A DNA stretch of 64,000 nucleotides from Escherichia coli 042 (GTDB lineage Bacteria; Pseudomonadota; Gammaproteobacteria; Enterobacterales; Enterobacteriaceae), in NCBI RefSeq assembly GCF_000027125.1, contig NC_017626.1, one strand, 5' to 3'. The first letter of the stretch is position 1; each line of letters opens with the position of its first letter. Of the stretch, positions 2,340 to 44,628 are shown in pieces. Both the position numbers and the translations under genes were made by a program. The notes under the pieces were generated by a model. That model worked only from the letters and a program-made list of their open reading frames with translations. It had not been told where the DNA came from and made no database searches.

Positions 2340-3623
2340 TTACAGACTTCTTGAAGGTTGCGCAGCTGTTACAACACGCGGTTGATCTTCCGCGGCATCT
2401 TCCAGTGCACTTAAATCACGGTCTCTCACTTCTGGCATTTTCAGCGCAGAGATTAAACCAATCACTGAATATGCCATGATCATAATGGCGATCGGATACC
2501 AGGATTCCGTCATGGTGCAGAAAATACCCGCCAGGATAGGACCAAAACCGGAAGCGATAAGACCACCAATTTCTTTAGAAATCGCCATCCGGGTAAAGCG
2601 GTTTTTACAGCCGAACATTTCTGCCATGGTAATGTTTTCCAGAGCAAATAATCCCAGCACCGCACAGTTATGAATCACAATCAGTGCAACCATAATGGTG
2701 CTCGGGGCATAGCTTTTATCTACGATGATAGAAAGCATTGGCCACGCCAGCACAATCGCAGAGGTATTCATAATAATATACGGGATCCGGCGACCTATTT
2801 TATCGGATAACCAACCAAGGAACGGAATGGTCATAAAGCCGAGAATCGAACTGATCATCAATGCATCTGTTGGAATTGCTTTGTTAAACAATAACGTCTG
2901 CACTAAATAGCCTGCAAGGAAAGTCTGAATTAAACCGGAGTTACCAGCCTGACCAAAACGCAGCCCTGTTGCCAGCCAGAAGGATTTGCTCTGGAACATG
3001 CTACCAGCAGGTGCAGGTTTTGCTGTCGGTTGGTTGCTGTCGTTAACCTTCTCAAAGACCGGGCTTTCTTTCAGATTCATACGCAACCAGATAGCAAAGA
3101 CCATCACGACAACGCTCGCCAGGAACGGTATACGCCATCCCCACGCAAGCAGTTCCTCTTTACTGAGAATGAAGAACATAAAGGCCCAGATTGCCGTTGC
3201 GCTCAAGGTTCCGCAGTTAGTCCCCATAGCAACAAATGAGGAGATAATTCCGCGCTTACCTTTTGGTGCATATTCCGCCAGCATCGTGCCGGCACCGGAA
3301 ATTTCCGCGCCTGCCCCCAGCCCCTGAATAATACGCAGCGTCACCAGCAAAATTGGCGCAAACACACCAATTTGTGCATAGGTCGGCAGCACACCAATTA
3401 AGGTAGTACAGATCCCCATCATAGTGATGGTAATAAAGAGCACTTTTTTACGCCCGATTCTGTCGCCCATTTTGCCGAAAATAAATGCTCCGACAATACG
3501 CGCCACATAACCTGCACCGTAGGTTCCCATTGCCAGAATTAACGCCATTGCCGTTGATGATTCAGGAAAAAATATTTCATGAAACACTAACGCTGCGCCG
3601 AGCGAATATAACTGGAAATCCAT
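2340..3623 (-). pseudogene. ydfJ: MFS transporter YdfJ, C-terminal 427 codons; N-terminal ~34 codons separated by the prophage
   Basis: ORF starts MDFQLYSLGAALVF, which is internal to typical MFS N-termini; the missing N-terminus (MTIEKHERSTKDLVKAAVSGWLGTALEFMDF) is encoded at 51200..51310 on the same strand. Confidence 0.85.
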
Positions 3624-6223: not shown

Positions 6224-9192
6224 TATGCAAGCCTCACAATATAGTTAAATGCGATGTTTTTGACGGTGTTTTCCGCGTTACCAGCAGCGTTAACGGTGAT
6301 GGTGTGTCCATGTGAACCAATCGCAACGGAGTGCGTATGAGCACCAATACCGACAGTATGTGCATGTGCGCCTGCGCTTGCAGCAGTGCCGGACAGCGAG
6401 TGGGTATGAGCACCATCTGATGATGTCTTCCCTGCATTACGAGTCTGGCCACTACCGCTTGTTGTGCTCATAATCCCCGCGCTTAGATTTGAAATCGCGG
6501 TATAACCATTAGGGAAAATGCTCGTGTTCGTGCCACCAAATGCACCGGAACTCTTGTGTTGGTGCGCACCGGCACTATTTGCAGTCCCGCTAATACTATG
6601 GGTATGCGCCCCGGTGTTATTCGTGGATTTGGTTCCGTAATCAAACGACGATGTGTTTTTCGTCCCCAAATCCGTACTGGATGCGCTGGCGCTGTGGGTG
6701 TGCGATTTAATGCCGTCCTGTTCCTGAGACAATACGGCACGACCACTGGCGGGTTTGCCCTTAATCGTCCAGCCACGCATATCAGGGATCACGCCTGACG
6801 GATAAGCGGCTGCAAGTTTCGGGTATGCAGATTTGTCAAAAGTCTGCCCCTGCATCAGGGCATAGCCAGACGGAACGGTATCTGATGGCCACGGGATTGG
6901 TGCGCCAGGCGGATAAAACTGCTCTGATGGCGTATAGAGTGAATAAACTGTACCGTCCGTTAACCCTTCCGGCTTATTAGCAGAATATGCTGGTGACGTA
7001 TGAATCGTCACGCTGGCATTACTGGTATAATCCCATTGAATATTTACACCAGTCGCATAATTTCCGATTGCAACGTAAATATCGTAAGTATCACCAGATG
7101 TATTGACCCAGGCAAAATTTGTAAACCCTGTCGATGTGCGCTGCCATAAAGCACCAGTAATCCCCTTCGGATTACCATTACCTGCACGCAAAACAAGTTC
7201 AGATATACCTGCCTGTTGAGGTGACCCCACGTTAAATCCCGCGCCACCAATCAACGTAATTGAAACAACAGAACTCGCCTGTGGCATGGTTACCGTTGCT
7301 AATTTGAACCAACCAGCACCACCGCTGAATGACATTGTTGTTGAGTTAAGCGTACCAATATCTTTCGGCGTCAGTGTTATATCCGCTGAAAGCGCCTTAC
7401 CATTCACCTTACGGGCAGAAGGTACCCGACCATTCGCATTATCATTAGCTGCTTTCACTGCTTTCGGTGTCGCGGCAAGCGTTTCAGATGCGCTGTTGGT
7501 TGCACTACTGAGCTGGACAATTCCTTTTTGTGCTGTCGTAGCGTTCTGAGCAGTATATTTCCCGTTAGCAAGGTCATAGGCTGCCTTTACCGACTTTGGC
7601 GTTGCCGCCAGCATTTCAGATGTGCTGTTGGTCGCGTTGCTAAGCTGAACTATCCCTTTCTGTGCTGTCGTTGCATCCTGTGCGGTGTATTTCCCGTTAG
7701 CCAGCTCATACGCGGCCTTAACGGCTTTTGGTGTTGCCGCCAGTGACTCGGAAGTGCTGTTAGTCGCACTGCTGAGCTGTACTATCCCCTTTTTCGTCGT
7801 GCTCGCATCCTCAAGCGCGACGGCGGATGCAATATCCTCTGCCCGTTTTGCCGCTGTCTCGGCGCGCGTTGCCGCGGATTCCGCCGTACTTTTGCTCTGA
7901 GCTGCCGCCGTCGCACTGCCAGCTGCCTCTGTCGCCTTCGTGGATGCCGTCGTGGCGCTGCCCTTTGCTGCTGACGCCTGTCTGGTCGCCTCATCTTTTG
8001 AAGCAGACGCAGATAATGCCGATGACGCCGCCGAACTGGCGGACGATGCGGCAGCCGTTTTTGAGGATTCTGCGCTGGTTTCCGACGCTTTCGCGTTCGT
8101 CTCGGATGTCTTCGCTGCGGAAGCAGACCTCGCTGCTGCGCTGGCCTGTACAGCGGCTTCGCCAGCCTTCGTTGTGGCTGTTGAAGCGGACGATGCAGCA
8201 CTTTCTGCCGATTTTCCGGCGGCGGTGGCACTGGCTGAGGCCTGCCCGGCATTTGTTGACGCGGCGCTGGCAGATGAGGCAGCCGCTGTTTTTGAGTCTG
8301 CTGCTGCGGAGGCACTCTGTGCTGCTGCCGTCTCAGAAGACTTAGCGTTCGTCTCGGACGTTTTTGCCGCCTTCGCGGAATTTCCTGCCGCTGTTGCCGA
8401 GGAGGCTGCACTACTGGCGCTCGAGGCTGCGCTCGTTTCTGATGATTTTGCCGCCTCTTTTGAGGCCGCCGCATCCCGGGCTGAGGTGGCAGCTTCTGAC
8501 GCCTTCGTGGTCGCGGCGGATGCAGAAGTGGCTGCTGATTGTTGTGACGCTGCCGCATTCGTTTCTGACGTTTTCGCGGCACTGGCACTGGTAGCTGCCG
8601 CGCTTTTTGAGGACTCTGCAGCGGCAGCACTTTTTGATGCTTCAGTAGCCTTTGTTGATGCCGTTCCTGCGCTGGAAGACGCTGACTGAGCCGACGTCGC
8701 GGCCTGCCCGGCTGATGTGCTGGCTGCACGTGCTGAGCCTGCAGCATCAGTCGCATGGGTTGCCGCCTCACGGGCTGATGTGCTGGCATCGCTGGCTGAC
8801 TTCTTCGCGGCTGCTGTGTTCTGCGCCACTGCGGACGCGTTACGCGCCACCTCTTCCACCATCAGTTCAAAACGGCGCAGTGCCTCAGGACGGGCATCAT
8901 CCTCCGTCATGGCACCGAGAAAATCATTCAGCGTACCGGGTCGGGAATCTTCATACACGGTGATGGTCCCGGCATGTGACGGCGGGAATCCTTCCACCAA
9001 CAGAATAACGCTGTACTGACCGTACTCAACGTCCATGCTGTAACGCCCGGCCTCATCCGGATTTTCTGAGGCCAGCGTGTTCACCACCACCGTGGTGCTG
9101 TTACGTTTTGCTTTCAGCTGGATTGTGCAGTTCTGTACCGGTTTTCCTGTGCCGTCTTTCAGTACACCTGAAATCTTTACTGCCATATTCAC
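6223..9192 (-). CDS. stfQ: side tail fibre protein (Stf), 989 aa, with expanded Ala/Ser/Thr-rich repeat region
   Basis: N-terminus [26 protein letters not shown]... like lambda Stf; low-complexity A/S/T-rich stretch; three ~43-aa tandem repeats; His-rich HxH motifs near the C-terminus. Confidence 0.85.
7455..7830. repeat. three tandem ~129-bp repeats inside stf
   Basis: Repeated protein unit TAQ(D/N)[12 protein letters not shown](N/S)ATNS(T/A)SE(M/T)LAATPK(A/S)VKAA seen three times, with matching near-identical DNA blocks. Confidence 0.7.
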
Positions 9193-34679: not shown

Positions 34680-35432
34680 TTATCTCGTCACCTTCCTCAA
34701 TTGCGCTTCCGCGTATGCTTCTTCCTGCCAGCACTTTGTTACCAGTTTACCAATGACGTCCGCATACCCCTTATACCACTGATAATCGGTCAGGTCTGGT
34801 ACCAGCTTCTGGACATGACGTCGTGCCAGCGTGGTCGGTAAACGACTAAACCGGTTTCCATTACAACGCCCACAAATCTTATATACCGGTACGCCATGAA
34901 ACCGGGTTCTTTTTTCATCCAGAACAATCCCTTTACCCTTACACCCTCTGCACGCTGTGCTGGCTTCGCCCTTACCATGGCAATGCTGACATAGTTCCTT
35001 CACCCATTCTTCCTTGATTACAGATTCCCCGCGTCTGTAGTGTTTCACCACTTCGCGCAATACATTATAAAATCCCGTACCTGAACAATGCTCACAGCGA
35101 GCCTTACTTGCCGCAGACCTGGAGTAATCAGCAAAGGCAAAACTCACGAGGTAAGGAATAATCTGTAACCGGATTTCTTCACTCAATTTGTTCAATGTCG
35201 GGTTATCCAGTGCCATCGCGTAATTTAGCAGGCCTTCAATCGCAAACTGAGGGTCCTGAACACCAACTTTTGCCAGAAATAAGGCCAACCCAAGTGGTGC
35301 TTTCGACTGCACCATCCCCTGCGCTGCCATTACATCCGTAATTGTTAAACAACCGGTGCCTGTCGCTGGAGCGTCATCGCTCAATTTTGGAGATTTTGGG
35401 GAGTAATATTTTGGTAAGGCTTCAAGGTTCAT
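34680..35432 (-). CDS. quuQ: late-gene antiterminator Q
   Basis: ORF 34680..35462; start chosen at MNLEALPKYYSPK... (250 aa); Cys-rich zinc-binding region; synteny. Confidence 0.85.
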   Translation of the reverse strand: MNLEALPKYYSPKSPKLSDDAPATGTGCLTITDVMAAQGMVQSKAPLGLALFLAKVGVQDPQFAIEGLLNYAMALDNPTLNKLSEEIRLQIIPYLVSFAFADYSRSAASKARCEHCSGTGFYNVLREVVKHYRRGESVIKEEWVKELCQHCHGKGEASTACRGCKGKGIVLDEKRTRFHGVPVYKICGRCNGNRFSRLPTTLARRHVQKLVPDLTDYQWYKGYADVIGKLVTKCWQEEAYAEAQLRKVTR

Positions 35433-35445
35433 GCTCGTTCTCCAC

Positions 35446-36534
35446 TTACGCCAGTACGCCAATTGCCAGCGCGCGATCGATAAAACGAAATATCAGCTCC
35501 AGTTGGGAGCCATACTTATCTTCAAATGCCACTGTATCCGTATGCAGCTCGTTGTGATGCTTTCTGCACAAAGGCAACACAAAGAGATCATGTGCTTTTG
35601 TTCCCATTCCGCCCTGCCCGTGACCAATCAGATGATGCGGATCGTCGGCTGGCATACCGCAGCAAGCACACGGCTGTGTCTTAACCCAACGTGTGTATTT
35701 CTCCTTAACCCAGCGGCGACGTTTAGGCAGCTTCATGAAAGATTCCGGAGACTCTGGATCAACGGTGATGCTTACCACCGTCTTTTCCTGTGGTGATTTT
35801 TGTTGCTGGTGGGCGTAAGGCAACGGTGCAAGATTTTTTGTGCGTTGTTTCAATATGCTGGTGGCGGTCTGCTCTCCCGGTACGATGTCGCTTTCGCGGT
35901 ACACCGAGCAGATTTTTTCCGCTGGTAATCCCAGCGAACGACGCGATACAGCCTCAGGTAGTGCATCCACCACCTGATTGCAGACCGCCCACCAGGATAA
36001 TTCAGCCAAAGATAATTCCCGCTCCTGCGTACCGCTTATTGCGTGACGGATGACGTCAATCACCCATGCTGTCAGATTTTGTTGAGCAAGCAGCTCCAGT
36101 GATTCCGATGTCTGGTCACGCAGTTGGTTGTCGCAGTGCCAGCACAACACCATTGCGCCGGTACCATAACGGTGAATGACTGTTTCAGTGTGATGGTAAT
36201 CGCCATTAGGCCACTGGCAGGATGTAACATGACGTAATAGCCAGTCGGACAATGCGCCAACGCCGCCAGCAGCACGAATCACCCGTTCGTTACTAAAAAA
36301 CGGCAGCAATGTTTTGTCTTCCGCCAGCGGCTGGCGAACGGCAGGAACGACTCCGGATGGCAGATTACGCATGCTTTTTGGTTCCGGTTCCACCAGCACT
36401 CGAGGATTATGAAATATCTGTATGGATTCACGGCCCGGCTTAAGGACCACCAGCCCAAGCTCAGGCACCAGAACAGGTCTAAGTAATACCCGCACGTTAC
36501 CTCCAGATCCGTTGCTGGAAAGTGCGGGACGCAC
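35446..36534 (-). CDS. ydfU: DUF968-family prophage protein YdfU
   Basis: 362-aa ORF with C-terminal HNH-like Cys/His cluster (CACCGMPADDPHHLIGHG...CRKHHNELH); synteny. Confidence 0.75.
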   Translation of the reverse strand: MRPALSSNGSGGNVRVLLRPVLVPELGLVVLKPGRESIQIFHNPRVLVEPEPKSMRNLPSGVVPAVRQPLAEDKTLLPFFSNERVIRAAGGVGALSDWLLRHVTSCQWPNGDYHHTETVIHRYGTGAMVLCWHCDNQLRDQTSESLELLAQQNLTAWVIDVIRHAISGTQERELSLAELSWWAVCNQVVDALPEAVSRRSLGLPAEKICSVYRESDIVPGEQTATSILKQRTKNLAPLPYAHQQQKSPQEKTVVSITVDPESPESFMKLPKRRRWVKEKYTRWVKTQPCACCGMPADDPHHLIGHGQGGMGTKAHDLFVLPLCRKHHNELHTDTVAFEDKYGSQLELIFRFIDRALAIGVLA

Positions 36535-36775
36535 GTGGTGGGCGTTCGGAATAAGGCAGCCTGACAGAGATTATCCAGTGCCGATAGTCGAGACTGAGAG
36601 CTTTCTTAACCTCGAACCCGCGCCTGCGGTAAGAATGAATCAGCCATTCGGCCTGTTCTGCAGTGCATGGAGGGTGCTGGAACCATTCAGACTTGAATGC
36701 GTGAGAATACCGCCCGTGCGTGCAGGCAAGAACGGGCGAATTATCAGAATTGTAATATTTTGCGTTGCGTGCCAT
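36497..36775 (-). CDS. rem: small prophage protein Rem
   Basis: 92-aa ORF; position between ydfU and hokD as in Qin; start uncertain. Confidence 0.5.
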   Translation of the reverse strand: MARNAKYYNSDNSPVLACTHGRYSHAFKSEWFQHPPCTAEQAEWLIHSYRRRGFEVKKALSLDYRHWIISVRLPYSERPPRASRTFQQRIWR

Positions 36776-36841
36776 CGGTTTTCTCCGGTGGCACGGTGTT
36801 ACTCAGCGGGAGTTCAGCCCCGCGCAAGATTGTAGATGAGT

Positions 36842-37093
36842 TTATTCTCCTGAAAAAGCAGAAAAGCCAGCTTTTATTCCGATCTCTTTCAATGCCTGTA
36901 ATGAAGTGACAAACTCACCTTCGCGCAAGATAAATCCGTCCGTGACCCGAGCATCCACAAAATTAATTAACGCAGCCCCATTCTTTCGCAAACACATAAT
37001 GCGGTAATGACTAACAAGATTTCCATTTTCAACGCACACAGCATAGAGGCCATCTTCACAAAAAATTTTACGCAGTTCTTCGATGTTCATCAT
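36842..37093 (-). CDS. hypothetical 83-aa protein
   Basis: ORF MMNIEELRKIFCEDGLYAVCVENGNLVSHYRIMCLRKNGAALINFVDARVTDGFILREGEF...; between the relBEF terminator and rem. Confidence 0.4.
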   Translation of the reverse strand: MMNIEELRKIFCEDGLYAVCVENGNLVSHYRIMCLRKNGAALINFVDARVTDGFILREGEFVTSLQALKEIGIKAGFSAFSGE

Positions 37094-37214
37094 CAGAATC
37101 CTTCCGGATAATTAGCTCTCCCCTTTAAGGGACCATCCCTCTTATCCCTGCGCGCTACTTAAGTATTTTTGATTCTATTCCGGCACCGTCCAGAACTTCA
37201 AACGCGTTGAAAAT

Positions 37215-37245
37215 AAAAACAAAAACCCGCCGAAGCGGGTTAAGT
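37215..37245 (-). terminator. rho-independent terminator of the relB-relE-hokD operon
   Basis: Minus-strand hairpin aacccgcttcggcgggtt followed by TTTGTTTTTATTTTC. Confidence 0.6.
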
Positions 37246-37309
37246 GCGGGTGCGTTGAGGATGCCTGCCACATCAGAGGTGGCGAGGGATTTCTCCCCCG
37301 CCGGGTCTC

Positions 37310-37465
37310 TTACTCCTCAGGTTCGTAAGCTGTGAAGACAGCGACCTCCGTCTGGCCGGTTCGGATTCGTACCTCGCAGAGGTCTTTCCTCGTTACCAGT
37401 GCCGTCACTATGACGGTTAAACAGATGACGATCAGGGCGATTAACATCGCCTTTTGCTGCTTCAT
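37310..37465 (-). CDS. hokD: type I toxin HokD (RelF), 51 aa
   Basis: Manual translation MKQQKAMLIALIVICLTVIVTALVTRKDLCEVRIRTGQTEVAVFTAYEPEE; below ORF-track cutoff. Confidence 0.85.
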   Translation of the reverse strand: MKQQKAMLIALIVICLTVIVTALVTRKDLCEVRIRTGQTEVAVFTAYEPEE

Positions 37466-37536
37466 AGCCTGCTTCTCCTGTCAACGCAAAGCAGAAGTGT
37501 CACCTTCGGTGCGAAACAGAGATGTCATGCTTTGGT

Positions 37537-37824
37537 TCAGAGAATGCGTTTGACCGCCTCGCTATATACTTCCGAGCGTTCTCTTTTCCCAACAGAAATC
37601 ACGAAAACGACAACTTTCTCGTCTATAACCTGGTATACAAGGCGATAGCCTGAAGACCGGAGCTTAATCTTGTAACAATCAGGCATACCACGGAGCTTGT
37701 TTGCTTCAATCCGGGGTGACTCAAGTACTTCAACCAGCTTCTTTTTCAACTGTTCACGTACCGTCGAGCCCAGCTTTCGCCATTCCTTTAGTGCCCGCTC
37801 GTCAAAATCCAGAAAATACGCCAT
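37537..37824 (-). CDS. relE: type II toxin RelE (mRNA interferase)
   Basis: 95-aa ORF MAYFLDFDERALKEWRKLGSTVREQLKKKL... Confidence 0.9.
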   Translation of the reverse strand: MAYFLDFDERALKEWRKLGSTVREQLKKKLVEVLESPRIEANKLRGMPDCYKIKLRSSGYRLVYQVIDEKVVVFVISVGKRERSEVYSEAVKRIL

Positions 37825-38063
37825 CAGAGTTCATCCAGCGTCACACGTACTGGCTTAGGATTACGAAGCCGTTCTTTCACTATCTCCACAAGTTCAGCAT
37901 CTTCATCACTCAGGAGTGTCTGTTTGAACGGCAAGCGTTCATTGTCAGCGATATACTCGAGCATGAGACGAAGCGCTTCAGAAGGAGTTACACCCATTTT
38001 TTCAAGCGCGGCGTAAGAACGCGCTTTAAGTTCATCGTCAATACGCAGGTTAATGCTACCCAT
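37824..38063 (-). CDS. relB: type II antitoxin RelB
   Basis: 79-aa ORF MGSINLRIDDELKARSYAALEKMGVTPSEALRLML...; stop overlaps relE start. Confidence 0.9.
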   Translation of the reverse strand: MGSINLRIDDELKARSYAALEKMGVTPSEALRLMLEYIADNERLPFKQTLLSDEDAELVEIVKERLRNPKPVRVTLDEL

Positions 38064-38087
38064 GTCTTACACCTCTTGTAATTACAA

Positions 38088-38393
38088 ATGTCATTACAAG
38101 TATCGCACTACAACATGCTTAGGGCAAGTCACGAAGGAAGTCAGAAAGTAGTCGTAAGAACGGTGATCACTGTCCGCTTTGTGCCAGGAGCAGCCATTGC
38201 TAAGTCCATCCTGTATTGTGCAGGTCAGCTCGTTTTTAAAGAGTCCGGCCATCATCTTACTGGTACAGACACCATATACTTTGTGACGGTCAGGCTACAT
38301 ATGCACAACTCAACTTATTCATCTATTTTTTGCTTTAGCATGTCAGTGTTGCTTTCTCGTCGGCGGGTGAGCGGTGACCTGACCTGTCGATAA
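38088..38393 (+). CDS. ydfV: possible YdfV-like ORF (101 aa), weakly supported
   Basis: Length and position between relB and flxA match K-12 ydfV; composition not strongly protein-like. Confidence 0.3.
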   Translation: MSLQVSHYNMLRASHEGSQKVVVRTVITVRFVPGAAIAKSILYCAGQLVFKESGHHLTGTDTIYFVTVRLHMHNSTYSSIFCFSMSVLLSRRRVSGDLTCR

Positions 38394-38595
38394 AGGAACG
38401 TAACACGTTTTATGCAACACCCGCATGCGGCAGAAAATTATTGCCGAACGTTTACCCCTGTCAACAAGCTTTACTTTCTGAGGCGCGCCAGCCCGCGAGG
38501 AAAACAATCTGAACATCAAACAATTAATGACACAAGAAATACGATTAAAGATTTTTTTGTGCATGCCGATAGTGCTTTTTTAAAAGGAGAAATCT

Positions 38596-38928
38596 ATGTC
38601 TGTCACAATTCAGGGAAATACCTCAACCGTTATTTCAAACAACTCCGCCCCGGAAGGAACATCAGAAATAGCCAAAATCACAAGACAAATTCAGGTGCTG
38701 ACTGAAAAGCTTGGGAAAATCTCATCGTAAGAGGGGATGACGACACAGCAGAAAAAAGAAATGGCTGCATTGGTACAGAAGCAAATTGAAAGCCTCTGGG
38801 CTCAACTGGAGCAGTTGTTAAGGCAGCAGGCAGAGAAAAAGAATGAAGACGCGACAGTTCAGCCTGATAAAAAAGAAGAGAAAAAAGACGATACAAATAC
38901 CGCTGGCACCATTGATATTTACGTCTAA
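38596..38928 (+). pseudogene. flxA: FlxA-like protein interrupted by in-frame TAA at codon 45
   Basis: MSVTIQGNTSTVISNNSAPEGTSEIAKITRQIQVLTEKLGKISS, stop, EG, then ORF-track 38737..38928 MTTQQKKEMAALVQ... in the same frame. Confidence 0.7.
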
Positions 38929-38942
38929 GTGACAGCCGTATT

Positions 38943-38968
38943 GTGGCCCTCATCGGGCCACTTTTCGC
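38943..38968 (+). terminator. hairpin plus T-run after flxA
   Basis: tggccctcatcgggcca stem followed by CTTTTCG. Confidence 0.5.
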
Positions 38969-39299
38969 CATCAGCCTTTTCTTTAAAGACATATTATCTT
39001 TGTATCATTTCTGATAGTTAACATTACAAGATATAAGTAATGGACGCACTCCCAATTAGTCTATTTAAATCGCCACGAGTTTAACTGACAACCCATGATC
39101 AATTATGAATTGCAACTATTTCTGTAGTCACTTTTGTGGGGACAGTCCACAAAACTGCCAACTTCCGCTTCTTGCTCTTAGCGGACATTAGCATAGGCTA
39201 TTTACCATAACGCCTCATTACGCGCACCGCCCAGACTGACTCAGCGCGTTTCTGGCATATCCCCGGTAAAACAAGTAACAAACCACCCGAAAATGAACA

Positions 39300-40760
39300 C
39301 CAGAAACGCGACTTAAGAATCTACCCTATGAATGGATATGCACTCAACCGAATCGATCTTGGTTTCAATCTTTTTTATCGGGATCAGGCTTCTTTTTAGG
39401 TAACTTCGGGGGCTTAACTTGCTGATGACTTTGCGTTCGGCGCGTAAGCCAGGGATGGTCAGCTTTAGGTTTAACATAGTATTTTGAGCGTAAATCAATA
39501 CGGGCATTATCCACTCGTTCATGGACACTCTTTTCATCATCCAGTGGTATAGGCTCCGGGCCATCAACATACTTTTCCCAGCCCAGCGCTTTCCCGTCAT
39601 ACAGAACGTTAATTTCACCGTCAAAGTTCTCGCATACAGTAACAACCGAATGCCTAAGTCGATATCCCCGGCCCTCACTGCGTACCTGAAACGCACTGCT
39701 TTTGTACTGGAAAGTGAGATTTTTAGACAGAACGCGCTTCGCCTGTAGGCTGAAGATATAACCCAGTTCCTCTTCAGAATGGTGCACATCAAGATGAGCA
39801 TTATCAGTAGTACGAGGCGACGTAGCGAACCGGTTGTTATAGGCTTCAATAAAGGTCGGCAACCATGCATTTGCTGTTTCAATATCACTGATATTCTGAA
39901 GCCGCATTTCTTTGACCAGCCTGTCCTGTAGTGTCTGATTGGCGCGCTCTACCCGCCCTTTTGCCTGCGGGCTGTTGGCATGGATTGGCTCGATGCCCAG
40001 TGTCTTTATCGCACGAGTGAACTGGGTCAGCTCACCTTCCCGCTCTGGGTTATTTACCCTGAATATACTGTGTCTATCAGAGTAGAGAGCGAGCGGTACG
40101 CCATGATCATTAAGGTAACCCCGGAGGGTTTCCATGTAAGCCCGGGTTGTTTCAGCAGGCACAAAACGCAACGCCATCAACGCACTGGTGGCATCATCAA
40201 TGAAAACGATCAGTGTACATCTGGGGCCTCGATTTTCAAACCAGTCATGAGGTGAGCCATCAATCTGGATCAGTTCACCGTAAGATGGTCGTCGCATGCG
40301 GCGTTGATATATACGGGCAATTTTACGACGGCGTTCACGCCATAACCCCTCTTCTACCATCCACTTTCTGAGAGTTTCAACGGATAAAGATAAACCGTGT
40401 ATCTCGCGCAATTTTTCGCACGCAAACGTAGGTCCAAAATCAGCGTAACGGCCTTTGAGGAGTGAAATTACTGTTGCTCTGAATTCAGTAGAAAAGGAAT
40501 TATTAGGACGCTTTCCACGTCGGTGGGAAACCAGACCAGAAGGCCCTTCATTTCTATACCGTTGCACCAGACGTTTAACCTGCCGAATAGAAATGCCAAT
40601 GCGTGCCGCAGCTTGTTCCTGAATAATCTGAAGTCGGTGGAGTTCCTTATGACTCATCGTAACAGTCTCTTTGATCATGAAAAATCCCCCAGAGAATTGT
40701 CTGGGGACATTTTAGAATGGTTCAAAGGGGACATTACAGCTTGGTGTTAACAATAGCCTG
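39300..40760. mobile_element. insertion sequence (boundaries approximate) carrying a DDE transposase
   Basis: Single 437-aa transposase gene in a ~1.45 kb block that interrupts prophage gene order between flxA and the replication genes; terminal inverted repeats not resolved by eye. Confidence 0.5.
39365..40678 (-). CDS. DDE (rve-fold) transposase with N-terminal HTH, IS481/ISNCY-like
   Basis: 437-aa ORF MIKETVTMSHKELHRLQIIQEQAAARIGISIRQVKRLVQRYRNEG... with integrase-core-like region. Confidence 0.8.
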   Translation of the reverse strand: MIKETVTMSHKELHRLQIIQEQAAARIGISIRQVKRLVQRYRNEGPSGLVSHRRGKRPNNSFSTEFRATVISLLKGRYADFGPTFACEKLREIHGLSLSVETLRKWMVEEGLWRERRRKIARIYQRRMRRPSYGELIQIDGSPHDWFENRGPRCTLIVFIDDATSALMALRFVPAETTRAYMETLRGYLNDHGVPLALYSDRHSIFRVNNPEREGELTQFTRAIKTLGIEPIHANSPQAKGRVERANQTLQDRLVKEMRLQNISDIETANAWLPTFIEAYNNRFATSPRTTDNAHLDVHHSEEELGYIFSLQAKRVLSKNLTFQYKSSAFQVRSEGRGYRLRHSVVTVCENFDGEINVLYDGKALGWEKYVDGPEPIPLDDEKSVHERVDNARIDLRSKYYVKPKADHPWLTRRTQSHQQVKPPKLPKKKPDPDKKD

Positions 40761-41012
40761 CTTCTCCGTGCCTTTCGGCACGTAAGAGGCTAACCTACAT
40801 GTGTCTAGCATGAAATTGGCCTCAGATTAATGTTAAGCGTCTTGCAGGACGCGTAATGTTAACTGGGGCTTTTCTCTATCTGCCGTTGGTGTCCATGCCC
40901 GAGGCAGATAGCCTCAAGCACCCGCAGTCATTCTACTTAACTAAGATTTCCCCGCAAACCGTTTTTGTCCAGCACAGTAAATATCCAACTAAACCAATGG
41001 AGTTCGCTGTAT

Positions 41013-41231
41013 TTACCGCCAGTATTCAATGCACATGACCGCCATGAACACCCCTAAAAAAAGGGCATTTATATATCCAAATATTAATATCAAAACATCA
41101 ACTTTTTCCATATACCTTGCTGTGAAGATGATGGGCATACATGATGCGAACAACCAGAACGCAACAAACAAAAACTGCAATGCGTTTTTCATTATTCCTC
41201 CTACAATCAATGTGCAATTACATTTAAACAC
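41013..41231 (-). CDS. hypothetical small membrane protein (two predicted TM helices)
   Basis: 72-aa ORF ...MKNALQFLFVAFWLFASCMPIIFTARYMEKVDVLILIFGYINALFLGVFMAVMCIEYWR. Confidence 0.35.
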   Translation of the reverse strand: MFKCNCTLIVGGIMKNALQFLFVAFWLFASCMPIIFTARYMEKVDVLILIFGYINALFLGVFMAVMCIEYWR

Positions 41232-42344
41232 ACCTCAATTTGGCCGGACATATAAATATCTAAACCAGAAAAAATCACTTACATAGCGTTACAAACTCTT
41301 TAGTCTAAAGGTTCATCGTAAAACATTCCCCATACTTATCAGTCCGTTCCGCGCCAGGTAGCTCATTGCCTTATCTGGCAACCTGTAATCAGGTTTCCGC
41401 TTTTTCAGTTGGCTGGTCGTTTAACCGACATAGTTAATCCATTAATCTAGTTGCCGGATGTTGGTGGATTTTCGCGTTTTAGTTGTTCATAAAAGTGCAC
41501 AGCTTTAACCAGTTCTTCTGATGTAACTGGGACTGGTGAGGCAGTGAATAAGGCCTGAATTTGATAGTTCGGCCTGTCGTTACAATCCTCTTTTTTCGGT
41601 ACATATTTCCAGTCACCAGACCACTACTTCCCCTGAAAGTCCGTAACGCCTTTTTTCACGTAGCGATATCGCCATGCCACTGGTTTTGCTTGCCCCGCCG
41701 TTTCATGCCCTTCCTGATAATTAATCTCGCTCATTCATCGCCCCACTCATCACAATATGCTTCGACCGGAGTTTTTCCCGCTTCATAGTCATCACGCTAG
41801 GATTCGACATCAGCAGCACTTCCACCGCGTAACTCACCATAGTCCATTAATAGTTCATCCCGCTCTTCAAAACTGATGTTATATTTAGCTGAACAAAAAT
41901 CAGCCACTTTGTTCTTCCTCATCGTCTTTTATTTCGTGGTATGAGTAATTGCAGTAGTTAAAGAAAATTTCTTATGCTCCGTCATGAATTTCCTCAGGTG
42001 TTGCGTCATCGTCCACTTCGAATACATCCTCAAAATCTCCACCAGCTATTCCCGTTTCAATAATAATTTTGAACTTTCGCATTTCACTACCGCCCTTTCG
42101 GGCGGCCTCCTGATGTTCTGAGGGTGCAGAAATCCATCCGGTTAAGGATTAAATTTTATTTACAGAACTGAATTTAATTATTCAGATATACGTATCTGTA
42201 GCCTTACGAATCTACTCACTGGATGCCTCTTTCATAAAAATAATCCAGTGGGTTTTATCGTTTTTTCCCTGTTCGTTGACAGATAACAGGTTTTCTGTCT
42301 GTCAGTGCCAGAATCTGGCTTACCGGTATTTGCGTTTCATTCCA

Positions 42345-42701
42345 TTAAAAAATCAGAACGCCGTGCGGCCTCAACACCCGAAAGGCTTCTTTAAATCTCT
42401 GTCGCGAATCATCACGCCAGGCATCTTTATTCAGCCGTCCATATTTCTTTCCCATCCAGGCGTTATCACCAACACTCTCAAGATGCGGAGGGTCTAATAC
42501 AACCATCGAAAAAGATGCGTCTGCAAATGATAATGCACGAAAATCTGCGATAATGTCAGGGCTGATAATCAAGCGTCTCCCATTGCGTAATGTGTATCCT
42601 TCTTTTCTGATATCGCTGAATATCGCCCGTTCGTCAGACTTATCGAACCAGAACATGCGGCTGCCACAGCACATATCAAGAATGGTTGCCGGTGCACTCA
42701 C
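42345..42701 (-). pseudogene. SAM-dependent DNA methyltransferase-like ORF, apparently truncated (118 aa)
   Basis: Motif I-like DMCCGSRMFWFD and motif IV-like VVLDPPH; ends at TAA after ...HGVLIF, frame continues protein-like (WNETQIPVSQILALTDRKPVICQRTGKKR). Confidence 0.45.
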
Positions 42702-43120
42702 TGCGCCACGTCCTGAAAATTACCCTGATAGAAAGCCAGTATGCGCTGCATAACTTCGCTCTTCCGGCACTCGCGACAGATTATGTTTAGGCGACTGTCG
42801 TAGCGACGTATTTCTCCGTCAGGTGATGACCAGATAAGGTCCGGATCAACCACAGCAGGTTTCTTCACCTTTGCCCTCGAGAGTTTTTTGCGGGCGTTTT
42901 GCCAGTCCTTACGCGCCTGTTCAGAGGGGAATAACCCGTAGCCGGAGTTGTATACATCGCCACTGGCTACCAGCTCTCTGGCAAGAACGCTCATCAGATA
43001 TCTAGTCGCACCTGTTTTAGCTTCCAGTTGCCGTAACGTCTCACGGCCGCTCTGGCGCACGAGTTCCACCACCTGCCATTTAATTTTTTCCCGCTCTTCT
43101 TGTGTAAAAACTTTTGCCAC
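42698..43120 (-). CDS. hypothetical prophage early protein (140 aa)
   Basis: ORF in the replication module downstream of the initiator gene; start overlaps methyltransferase-like ORF. Confidence 0.5.
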   Translation of the reverse strand: MAKVFTQEEREKIKWQVVELVRQSGRETLRQLEAKTGATRYLMSVLARELVASGDVYNSGYGLFPSEQARKDWQNARKKLSRAKVKKPAVVDPDLIWSSPDGEIRRYDSRLNIICRECRKSEVMQRILAFYQGNFQDVAQ

Positions 43121-43160
43121 AAGTCCCCCTTAAAATTACCTCATGACCTGAAATCAACAC

Positions 43161-44180
43161 TTATCCTCTGAAACCAGGCGGAATTTCTGTATCCGGTTCA
43201 GAAATATGATTAACACAACGCTGTACAGGTGAACGTCCCAGGCGGATGACCAGTTCGTCCCATTTTTCGCGGAGCTTTGACGGGCTCATGATGTTTTTGA
43301 CCCAGAATGGATCTCGCTGAACCCGACCAAACATTTCGCAAATTTGTCTGTGGCTTCTGCCATCCAGCATCCGCATTGTGCGCACGTCATTGGCCCAGGC
43401 AGTCCAGTTAGGCTCTTTTGGTCGCATGATCTCGCCATCATCACTGGCTGCCTGTTCGTAGAGACCCACGATCCGCCCCCAGATCCACTGCGCACACGCC
43501 AAATCCTCCCTGCTACCCCACTGGCGTTTTTTCGCACTAAACACAACCGCGTCGGAGTTCCGGGTTAAAAAATCCTGTTCAGTCGTCTGCGGGTCCGGTT
43601 GCGAAGCTTCCGGACGAAAAGTGTTTTTATTCTCTGTAGTAGTCTCTGTTGTATTCTCTGTAAGATCATCAGGCCATTTTGACCCGATGACATTGGGTCG
43701 TTTTGAACCAATGGAGCGTTTCATTTTGACCTCTTCCATCGTGTCATTTTGACCTGATGGAGCGGCGCATTTTGAACCGATGGATTCGCTCAATTTGCCA
43801 CCATCTAAAAGCTCGCTCCCATAGTTGATCGTGTAGAAATTGGTCATATCGCGCTTTGATTTATTGAGCTTTTCACAACGCAAAAGCCCCAGCGTTTTCA
43901 GACTTGCAAACGCGCGCTTTAACGTTGACTCTGACCAGAATGGGAACTGTTCCAGCCATTGTTCCGTTGTGTTATAAATCCAGCGAACACCATCACATTC
44001 CATGCCGGAGTTGGTATCTCTCAACCAGTAGTGCAGTTGTTGCAAAACAATGGCTTCGTTTAAGCCAATTTTCATTGCCAGCTGCGTGTTTATAACCAGT
44101 GGGCGTTCAGCAAAAAGAAGGCTCATAATTCCATCCAGCTTTTTGTTGGTATTGCTGTCGATACGCAAGTTTGAAAGCAA
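43161..44180 (-). CDS. putative phage replication initiator (lambda O position) with internal iteron origin
   Basis: 339-aa ORF at the position of lambda O relative to the Cro-like gene; contains a block of direct repeats inside the coding sequence. Confidence 0.55.
   Translation of the reverse strand: MLSNLRIDSNTNKKLDGIMSLLFAERPLVINTQLAMKIGLNEAIVLQQLHYWLRDTNSGMECDGVRWIYNTTEQWLEQFPFWSESTLKRAFASLKTLGLLRCEKLNKSKRDMTNFYTINYGSELLDGGKLSESIGSKCAAPSGQNDTMEEVKMKRSIGSKRPNVIGSKWPDDLTENTTETTTENKNTFRPEASQPDPQTTEQDFLTRNSDAVVFSAKKRQWGSREDLACAQWIWGRIVGLYEQAASDDGEIMRPKEPNWTAWANDVRTMRMLDGRSHRQICEMFGRVQRDPFWVKNIMSPSKLREKWDELVIRLGRSPVQRCVNHISEPDTEIPPGFRG
43675..43790. repeat. putative replication origin: ~5 direct repeats (iterons) of cattttga(a/c)c...atgga, period ~23 bp
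   Basis: Repeats cattttgacccgatgacattgggtcg / ttttgaaccaatggagcg / cattttgacctcttccatcg / cattttgacctgatggagcgg / cattttgaaccgatggattcg inside the initiator gene. Confidence 0.5.
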
Positions 44181-44628
44181 TTGCTTTTTCTATAAGTTCG
44201 TCAGTTTCACGATCCACTACGGCAGGATCAGCAAAAAGCAGTCCGGACTCCACCACATCGCCATATTCTTTGTTTAACCCGGCGATCATGCACGTGATGC
44301 TTTTTCCGTCAGTAATTTCACGATACAACCTGAAATCATTAATCCGGATAGCCTCCATAATTGCAGGCACTAGCGCCGTGAACTTTTCACGCTTATCCCT
44401 GGTGTCGATAGCCTTCCAGCGTTCAAATATCTTCACTCGATTAACGCCAAGCGCTCGCTGATCAATCGCGCCACCTTCATATGTGACACGCTGAACATCG
44501 ATGTTCGGGCGCTCTTTCAAAGCCCAGAATGCTTCAGTGATTAATATCGTCGCCTGCTCCTGTGTCATTCCTGGTCGACATATCCAGGCATCCAGAGCCT
44601 CACGAGCCTGTTCAGGAGTGATTTTCAT
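44107..44628 (-). CDS. YdaT-like prophage regulatory protein (cII position)
   Basis: 173-aa ORF directly downstream of the Cro-like dicC; pattern ...IFERWKAIDTRDKREKFTALVPAIMEAI... resembles YdaT-family proteins. Confidence 0.45.
   Translation of the reverse strand: MKITPEQAREALDAWICRPGMTQEQATILITEAFWALKERPNIDVQRVTYEGGAIDQRALGVNRVKIFERWKAIDTRDKREKFTALVPAIMEAIRINDFRLYREITDGKSITCMIAGLNKEYGDVVESGLLFADPAVVDRETDELIEKAIAFKLAYRQQYQQKAGWNYEPSFC

Follow-up and report, generated by a model that had tools for sequence, protein, structure and literature searches.

In the Qin prophage of Escherichia coli K-12, relBE is the founding model of type II toxin-antitoxin (TA) biology, and hokD (relF) is one of the founding hok genes. 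Northern blots have shown that relB, relE and relF (hokD) are co-transcribed as one relBEF transcript (PMC3598666). The three-gene operon has so far been taken as given, and the missing antitoxin of hokD has been ascribed to an unspecified "rearrangement"; a 2025 paper lists hokD as inactivated "by genomic rearrangements" (PMC12214031). Papers citing Ramisetty & Santhosh 2016 state that integration of relBE shortened an ancestral hokD/mok open reading frame (ORF) of ~70 codons, and a companion paper describes horizontally moving TA systems as only a promoter/operator and the ORFs. Here we analyze a 64,000-nt stretch of E. coli 042 DNA (contig NC_017626.1; "the window", whose positions are used throughout), in which relB-relE-hokD is, very probably, the junction between a transposon and its target.

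The mRNAs of hok/sok loci are classically closed by 5ʹ-3ʹ pairing of their tac and fbi elements. Such loci can function when carried by prophages, as in the case of hokW-sokW of Sp5 (PMC8621323). In K-12, IS150 and IS186 lie near, not inside, the reading frames of hokA, hokC and hokE (PMC12214031). Surveys of the IS1202 family (formerly the ISNCY/IS1202 group) describe imperfect inverted repeats (IRs) of ~24–30 bp that start with 5ʹ-TGT, target-site duplications (TSDs) of 15–17 bp in the ISTde1 subgroup, passenger-carrying "transporter IS" such as ISKpn21, and an ISAba32/ISAjo2 subgroup that targets dif/xrs sites. These surveys report ISEsa1 as having no detectable TSD, target specificity in the dif-targeting subgroup only, and passengers annotated only as "hypothetical".

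The locus in the window shares with K-12 Qin relBEF its gene order, its single terminator and 100% nucleotide identity across the genes, intergenic regions, right IR and terminator. It differs in that it retains the left IR, a nearly full-length transposase gene and an orphaned hok leader/sok region, which together point to the origin of the operon. In order of transcription, the principal features are as follows.

40768..40923 (minus strand): orphaned hok mRNA leader with 5ʹ tac, mok translation start and Sok-target/sok region (Rfam); contiguous with hokD in uninterrupted loci
40753..40767 (minus strand): left TSD, GGAGAAGCAGGCTAT (exact repeat; junction alignment against the empty site)
40723..40752 (minus strand): left terminal IR (IRL), TGTTAACACCAAGCTGTAATGTCCCCTTTG
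39365..40678 (minus strand): ISNCY/IS1202-family DDE transposase, 437 aa (NCBIfam; Pfam HTH and rve_3 domains)
37824..38063 (minus strand): relB antitoxin, 79 aa, intact (ORF list, K-12 alignment, Pfam, NCBIfam)
37537..37824 (minus strand): relE toxin, 95 aa, intact (ORF list, K-12 alignment, Pfam, NCBIfam)
37479..37508 (minus strand): right terminal IR (IRR), CGAAGGTGACACTTCTGCTTTGCGTTGACA on the minus strand, its tip 58 nt past the relE stop codon
37464..37478 (minus strand): right TSD (exact repeat; junction alignment against the empty site)
37310..37465 (minus strand): hokD (relF) toxin ORF, 51 aa, intact (ORF list, K-12 alignment, Pfam)

A repeat finder located two exact copies of a 15-bp sequence, GGAGAAGCAGGCTAT, that covers the hok Shine-Dalgarno (SD) sequence and the "AT" of its ATG. 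The copies are spaced 3289 bp apart, at 37464..37478 and 40753..40767, and each directly abuts an IR. The unit that they enclose, between the two halves of hok, is 3274 bp long and contains the terminal IRs, the transposase gene, flxA, ydfV, relB and relE. IRL and IRR (the right end, at 37508..37479, is the reverse complement of TGTCAACGCAAAGCAGAAGTGTCACCTTCG) agree at 22 of 30 positions, whereas no other site in the window scores more than 19. The probability of at least 22 matches is 3.8e-8 per position, with 0.005 such sites expected in the window. The repeats begin TGTTAAC and TGTCAAC, and thus have the 5ʹ-TGT start of the IS1202 family. A simple IS of ~1.5 kb, with an internal right repeat after the transposase stop codon, was rejected because no site there reaches 19/30.

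We constructed the corresponding empty site in silico by joining the flanks and keeping a single 15-mer. The resulting 612-nt sequence was found in other genomes as one contiguous piece with 99.0% identity and the annotation hokD; in 2514 genomes, at least 80% of its length is covered. In junction alignments, the 15-mer is single in the empty site and double in the window. Strain 2 HS-C has the same prophage synteny (YdaT-like, O, DUF977 and DUF7167 on one side of hokD; rem, ydfU and Q on the other), and the transposase gene, flxA, ydfV and relBE are absent from its hokD locus. Empty sites such as this may be either ancestral or precise excisions; in either case the unit would be mobile.

The two halves of the locus in the window were, judging from sequence comparison, once an ordinary hok/sok locus, because the joined flanks occur contiguously elsewhere, the Rfam leader adjoins hokD in those genomes, and the reconstructed mRNA is predicted to fold with its 5ʹ and 3ʹ ends closed. 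An Rfam scan of 35000..41000 gave a full-length match to RF01794 ("sok") at 40752..40923 on the minus strand (104.1 bits; gathering score 59), and no leader/sok adjoining hokD. The RF01794 model covers the entire hok mRNA leader, up to the start codon of hok, and the match ends with GGAGAAGCAGGCTAT, identical to the 15 bases immediately 5ʹ of the G in the hokD ATG. By Rfam, the leader directly adjoins hokD in the empty site and IRL in an IncI plasmid, and it is absent from the K-12 locus. Three further features belong to the divided locus.

40930..40935 (minus strand): putative −10 hexamer TAGAAT of the hok promoter, 6 nt 5ʹ of the first base of the leader (read from sequence)
40734..40811 (minus strand): truncated mokʹ ORF, 25 aa, starting in the leader and ending at a TAA inside IRL
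37248..37264 (minus strand): fbi-like 3ʹ element (GCATCCTCAACGCACCC), complementary to the 5ʹ end of the leader (GGGTGCTTGAGG, 40923..40912)

No consensus promoter emerged around the hok leader in a simple promoter scan, and the hok promoter is placed by position only. In the predicted fold of the reconstructed, uninterrupted mRNA (minimum free energy −176.8 kcal/mol, z = −7.85), the 5ʹ end (GGGUGCUUGAGG) pairs with the 3ʹ element (CCUCAACGCACCC, 37248..37264). This tac/fbi pairing is predicted for the reconstructed mRNA only; in the window, the partners are on different transcripts. Hence, the reconstructed locus resembles canonical hok/sok systems (parB of plasmid R1; hokW-sokW of Sp5) in its leader (104–108 bits with Rfam), Hok ORF, tac-fbi closure and terminator, whereas the locus in the window is split by the transposon and its hokD has a Hok ORF with no leader in cis, no adjacent mok or Sok target, and no promoter of its own. 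In the window, hokD takes its SD (GGAG) and the first two letters of its start codon, "AT", from the right copy of the 15-mer. After the left copy comes the T of IRL, giving ATT and destroying the hok start codon of the leader. A first-pass annotation of the window had described two toxin systems in one operon. This holds for RelBE, which is complete; hokD consists only of the toxin ORF, SD and 3ʹ untranslated region (UTR), with the leader/sok 3.3 kb upstream.

Why is the transposon invisible in the K-12 reference? K-12 lacks the equivalent of ~39550..44348, a 4.8-kb deletion (at 6752/6753 of the K-12 locus, L001) that takes replication genes, the hok leader/sok, IRL and ~85% of the transposase gene; the transposon is not apparent because this deletion took its left end. 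The K-12 gene "ydfW" corresponds to the final 49 transposase codons, fused by the deletion to a truncated YdaT-like gene ("ydfX"). The genome that best matches the window has a less-decayed Qin-like prophage (NZ_CP035884.1). Collinearity of the window with K-12, with the Rfam sok hit on ydfA/ydfB, was rejected, since the window follows this less-deleted Qin variant.

The relBE genes in the window have all the features of a RelBE type II system: a RelB/DinJ antitoxin (Pfam RelB, 1e-32; NCBIfam NF008412, RelB/DinJ equivalog, 133 bits with a cut-off of 96), a RelE/ParE toxin (Pfam ParE_toxin/RelE, 2.2e-13; TIGR02385, RelE_StbE, 54.7 bits with a cut-off of 27.9), an antitoxin-first bicistron, and an upstream operator-like repeat. 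HokD matches HOK_GEF (PF01848; 1.2e-23). The first-pass annotation was correct that the three ORFs are co-oriented on the minus strand and closely spaced: relB and relE overlap by 1 nt (base 37824 is common to both), and the gap between relE and hokD is 71 nt. It was also correct that this is the known Qin relBEF arrangement. The interval 37100..38300 (1201 nt) matches K-12 MG1655 and many other genomes with 100.0% identity (annotated relB, relE, hokD and ydfV), none of the three genes has a frameshift or premature stop codon, and RelE and HokD are 100% identical to the K-12 proteins. Among 5426 complete E. coli genomes, 1161 contain at least 80% of this interval. Two elements would control the transcript.

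38076..38099 (minus strand): relBE operator-like inverted repeat, TTGTAATGACATTTGTAATTACAA (TTGTAAT..ATTACAA), just 5ʹ of the relB ATG (read from sequence)
37214..37241 (minus strand): intrinsic terminator of the ancestral hok mRNA, and now of the relB-relE-hokD transcript (terminator scan)

Repression by RelB/RelE at the relO operator is established, as are RelBE autoregulation and the toxicity of HokD when overexpressed. The common terminator, which had been placed at 37215..37245, was recovered as a stem at 37241..37224 with a T-run, the only terminator-like site on the minus strand of 36800..38500; the scan detected none in the interval between relE and hokD. Since relBE has no terminator before IRR, the relBE promoter is expected to drive hokD, which accounts for the known co-transcription. 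An Rfam match to isrK at 37220..37301 (minus strand) was rejected: its 25 bits are below the gathering score of 50, and it corresponds to the two hairpins of the hokD 3ʹ UTR, a chance or structural resemblance.

One explanation for these data is that relB-relE-hokD is simply a known three-gene operon of type II and type I toxins, kept by selection while the prophage decays. The complete identity to K-12, the three intact ORFs, the documented co-transcription and the occurrence of the arrangement in 1161 genomes are all consistent with this explanation. However, the hokD leader and sok are 3.3 kb away, across DNA bounded by IRs and TSDs, and uninterrupted hokD loci are ~2-fold more common than the relBEF-type arrangement. 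The empty site and the IR/TSD anatomy contradict a plain operon as the full account; the description of relBEF as such is incomplete, since relBE reads over IRR and the target duplication into hokD. The proposal that these toxin systems are intact because they are selected for maintenance also fared poorly. Near-identical copies (99.5–99.8%) are found on plasmids in other genera, which points to recent spread rather than long purifying selection, so the intactness of the genes may reflect that spread. Moreover, other genes of the element are damaged in the window, with a 27-bp deletion in the transposase gene and a nonsense codon in flxA. We consider it unlikely that a selected operon is all there is to this locus.

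The transposon that we propose instead has further features that bear on its classification and content.

39160..40752 (minus strand): IS core (positions 1–1620 of the intact 3301-bp element), shared with an IS-only copy (L008)
37479..38193 (minus strand): conserved terminal relBE module of ~715 bp (~130 bp of promoter/operator, relB, relE and IRR), common to all cargo variants
40686..40707 (minus strand): terminator-like hairpin and T-run just inside IRL, stopping 8 nt short of the transposase ATG
38596..38928 (plus strand): flxA passenger gene, its frame interrupted by a TAA at codon 45 (38728, G>T)
38088..38393 (plus strand): ydfV ORF, divergent from relB, its first ~33–38 codons kept in variant elements

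The transposase matches NF033594 (transpos_ISNCY_2) with 455.5 bits for the window copy and 464.7 bits for an intact copy (cut-off 250). Relative to the 446-aa plasmid copies, from elements of 3301 bp that we use as the reference (an intact one lies at 68352–71652 of the Salmonella plasmid NZ_CP030003.1), the window copy has a 27-bp in-frame deletion near 40623 that removes nine amino acids (SINRHITQE) from the N-terminal HTH region and falls between 14-nt direct repeats. Forms of 3274 and 3301 bp are both found at the Qin site; hence, the deletion postdates the insertion. The base at 38728 that interrupts flxA is private to the window: the 60 other copies that were fetched all have G there, no identical sequence occurs among 1196 matching E. 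coli records, and it is the sole difference from NZ_CP035884.1 over the 3274-bp element. The hairpin at 40686..40707 may shield the transposase gene from read-through from the hok promoter. ydfV has no family match in Pfam or NCBIfam scans and may not be a real gene, given that its conservation is confined to the codons lying opposite the relBE promoter/operator.

From its sequence, the unit is a transporter-IS or transposon derivative of the IS1202 family. It shares with that family an ISNCY_2-type transposase, named ISEsa1-family by PGAP, and it would fit the ISTde1 subgroup, a tentative assignment, in its TGT-initiated IRs and its duplications of 14–16 bp as compared with the 15–17 bp described. 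The IS-only form, at ~1.62 kb, is close in size to ISEsa1 (1609 bp). The elements that carry passengers, at 3274/3301, 4155 and 12,843 bp, are not simple IS of 1.3–2.0 kb with one transposase ORF. They differ from the elements in the IS1202 surveys in being 3.3–12.8 kb long, in having a relBE end module with its own IRR, in their 14–16-bp TSDs, and in landing at the hok SD-ATG. With Tn3-family transposons that have embedded TA systems (PMC7157771), the unit shares a type II pair that is conserved near transposition functions or ends, outside the variable cargo. The family and mechanism are different, and here the TA operon is terminal and faces outward, reading into a target that is itself a TA locus.

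What is the mobile unit: the whole transposon, or relBE by itself? It has been argued that TA systems move as minimal cassettes, and relBE could have entered hokD as an autonomous promoter with two ORFs, by unspecified recombination, with the transposase gene incidental. This appears to be the view in the papers citing Ramisetty & Santhosh 2016. In some variants, the 715-bp relBE module is also more conserved (99%) than the transposase gene (91%), which suggests modular exchange. BLAST comparisons of the reference positions 2582/2590–3301, the relBE end, gave 93–99.7% identity in L006, L007, L017 and L019, with a different middle in each. An IS-only copy (L008, from Enterobacter sp. Ag1) is 99.75% identical to reference positions 1–1620 and has nothing beyond; it ends ~1620–1629 bp in, at a different, poorly matching end. 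A 4155-bp variant on a Citrobacter plasmid carries DUF2158 and hypothetical genes, and a 12,843-bp variant on the Phytobacter IncF plasmid NZ_AP025335.1 (L110, 628..13470) carries ncrY-C-B-A, chrB-A and others. The ncrYCBA and chrBA genes, for nickel and chromate resistance, respectively, are located between the transposase gene and the relBE end. This variant has the same ends, a 15-bp duplication (GGAGAAGTCAGCTAT) and an intact Hok ORF downstream, and it sits in the hok locus of an IncF leading region. The cassette explanation is difficult to reconcile with these ends: the 15-mers and IRs bound the whole 3274-bp unit, the same ends bound versions of 3301, 4155 and 12,843 bp, each with its own 14–16-bp duplication, and the left boundary of the relBE module has neither a repeat nor a duplication. 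We regard it as very improbable.

Two other observations concern the cargo variants. The nickel/chromate-type variant is also present in L105, L106 and L109, with the order IRL-transposase-ncr on Klebsiella L106 and Enterobacter L109. On the E. hormaechei plasmid NZ_CP085771.1 (L006, 3183..3257), relBE-IRR and IRL-transposase abut over a 15-bp spacer, GGAGAAGAAGGCCTG. Either a second insertion into the duplicated target or a circle-junction-like structure could account for this.

The whole element is found, with 99.5–99.8% identity, on plasmids of Enterobacter asburiae, E. roggenkampii, E. cloacae, E. kobei, Salmonella and E. coli. The full element is present in 759 E. coli genomes, with the right-hand fragment in K-12-type strains, and phage PhiR42_1 carries it at the same hokD site. 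IRL is identical in all other contexts. In other backbones both IRs are unchanged, whereas the duplications differ, each one matching the local hok sequence at either end of the element: TGGAGGGGCTATGAT in the IncI case, GGAGAAGAAGGCCA and GGAGAAGAAGGCCATG in the IncF cases, and GGAGAAGCAGGCTATG in a second hokD-type event. At independent sites the duplications are 14, 15, 15, 15, 16, 16 and 16 bp long, with a start shifted by 1 nt. In each of these backbones the insertion point is the hok SD-ATG, and relBE always reads into hok. We surveyed right ends by an exact-IRR search of public viral and metagenome contigs, together with loci already fetched. This yielded 88 right ends with 13 distinct downstream flanks, and at least seven different intact Hok ORFs downstream of IRR, 37–41% identical to HokD where measured. 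At the other end, we sampled six plasmids from 620 matches to the IRL-proximal part (Klebsiella, Phytobacter, Salmonella, Cronobacter and Enterobacter; IncF, IncHI2 and MOBH); in all six, a hok leader adjoins IRL, with a small hairpin and GGAG immediately preceding the repeat. By our estimate from these sequences, there are ~12–15 independent insertion events, nearly all at hok.

An alternative explanation for the adjacency to hok is homologous spread of one leader-transposon-hok block, or survivorship, whereby only insertions that disarm hok persist, in place of a choice made by the transposase. Similar hok/sok loci are abundant on plasmids and prophages, and would provide repeats for recombination. 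Inserted copies do appear to recombine: L054 (IMGVR_UViG_2534681836_000019) combines a left-hand hok leader of IncI type with a right-hand hokD ORF, has no matching duplication, and looks like the product of such an exchange between two insertions. Insertion between leader and ORF would be non-lethal, and many other positions might unleash the toxin, as survivorship requires. Homologous spread, however, is at odds with duplications that match the local hok on both sides in a variable register (14, 15 or 16 bp, with the 1-nt shift in the start), and with downstream Hok ORFs that are as little as 37% identical to HokD. Survivorship would favor the interval between leader and ORF, not a precision of 1–2 nt and a single orientation across IncF, IncI, IncHI2 and MOBH plasmids and prophages. 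We therefore consider this explanation improbable. The precision, the single orientation and the variable register of the duplications argue for target choice over recombination or survivorship alone, and a true specificity of the element for the hok SD-ATG is likely.

Several observations weigh against parts of this interpretation. Three of the sites, L008, L019 and L030, are not hok; L030 has no 15-bp duplication, and the IS-only copy L008 has no visible duplication and a different right end. The survey is biased, because an exact-IRR search finds only near-identical elements, and 64 of the 88 right ends are the same inherited Qin insertion, so that independent events number ~12–15 and not 88. 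The copy in the window, with its nine-amino-acid deletion in the HTH region, may be immobile. In the predicted fold of the fusion region, which is weakly structured (z = −2.7), GGAGAAG (the hokD SD) pairs with the last codons of relE, though only weakly, and HokD may or may not be translated from the fusion mRNA. Lastly, Ramisetty & Santhosh 2016 and Pedersen & Gerdes 1999 may describe more than the papers citing them convey. We found no literature that links ISNCY, IS1202 or ISEsa1 with relE or hok. The operon and the integration of relBE at hokD are already known; the transposon, its ends, the duplication, the cargo variants and the targeting of hok appear to be undescribed in the literature consulted.

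A different element has also been found at hok initiation regions. It has a TGTATGGGTCCACC... terminus (TGTATGGGTCC end) and a transposase with an integrase core, and it is located directly after the GGAG, with three junctions: GGAG/, GGAGA/ and GGAGT/. It is present at L093 (8597..11117), L068, L074, L081, L090 and L102 on the right, and at L104 and L106 on the left. By inspection only, it is probably IS481-like, and related transposases may share hok as a hot spot.

We propose the following origin for relB-relE-hokD. A transposon of the IS1202 (ISNCY) family, 3.3 kb long and consisting of IRL, a transposase gene, variable cargo (flxA and ydfV in this case) and a conserved end module of the relBE promoter, relB, relE and IRR, would have entered a Qin-like lambdoid prophage at its hok/sok locus, precisely where the hok leader meets the hokD start codon, duplicating the 15 bp GGAGAAGCAGGCTAT. 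Transcription autoregulated by RelB/RelE would then cross IRR and the duplicated SD, continue through hokD and end at the terminator of hok itself. The insertion would have severed hokD from its promoter, from coupling to mok, from the tac/fbi switch and from the Sok antisense RNA, placing it under relBE control and leaving the leader/sok half orphaned 3.3 kb upstream; K-12 would later have lost the leader/sok, IRL and ~85% of the transposase gene. The element family would prefer the hok SD-ATG on plasmids and prophages, in one orientation and to within 1–2 nt. We infer from sequence that the unit transposes and that its transposase encodes the choice of target; whether HokD is translated from the fusion mRNA, and what the element gains, are likewise matters of inference. 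As with hokA, hokC and hokE of K-12, a hok locus would have been disabled by a mobile element. The insertions at those three loci bring no new promoter, whereas that at hokD is at the start codon, appears site-specific and would rewire the gene to the promoter of a type II TA system.

What is the functional significance of such an insertion? One possibility, which we consider doubtful, is that IS1202-type transposons that always end in an outward-facing relBE module home into the translation-initiation region of hok/sok loci on conjugative plasmids and lambdoid prophages, disarm the Sok-controlled addiction system of the host element, and capture hok as a third cistron repressed by RelB. Loss of the transposon would then unleash both RelE and Hok, and relBEF of K-12 would be a fossil of this arrangement. 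If this homing occurs, one TA system parasitizes another. If relBE is the terminal module of a hok-homing transposon, the origin of the relBEF operon is explained, and the view of chromosomal TA systems as selfish elements is supported. The IS1202 family would have a second target specificity, after dif sites, and ISEsa1-like elements would have a TSD. The transposon would also be a vehicle for nickel and chromate resistance genes, bringing them into the leading regions of IncF, IncI and IncHI2 plasmids of Klebsiella and Enterobacter. Finally, it would become a testable question whether the captured Hok toxin has been silenced or recruited by the transposon.

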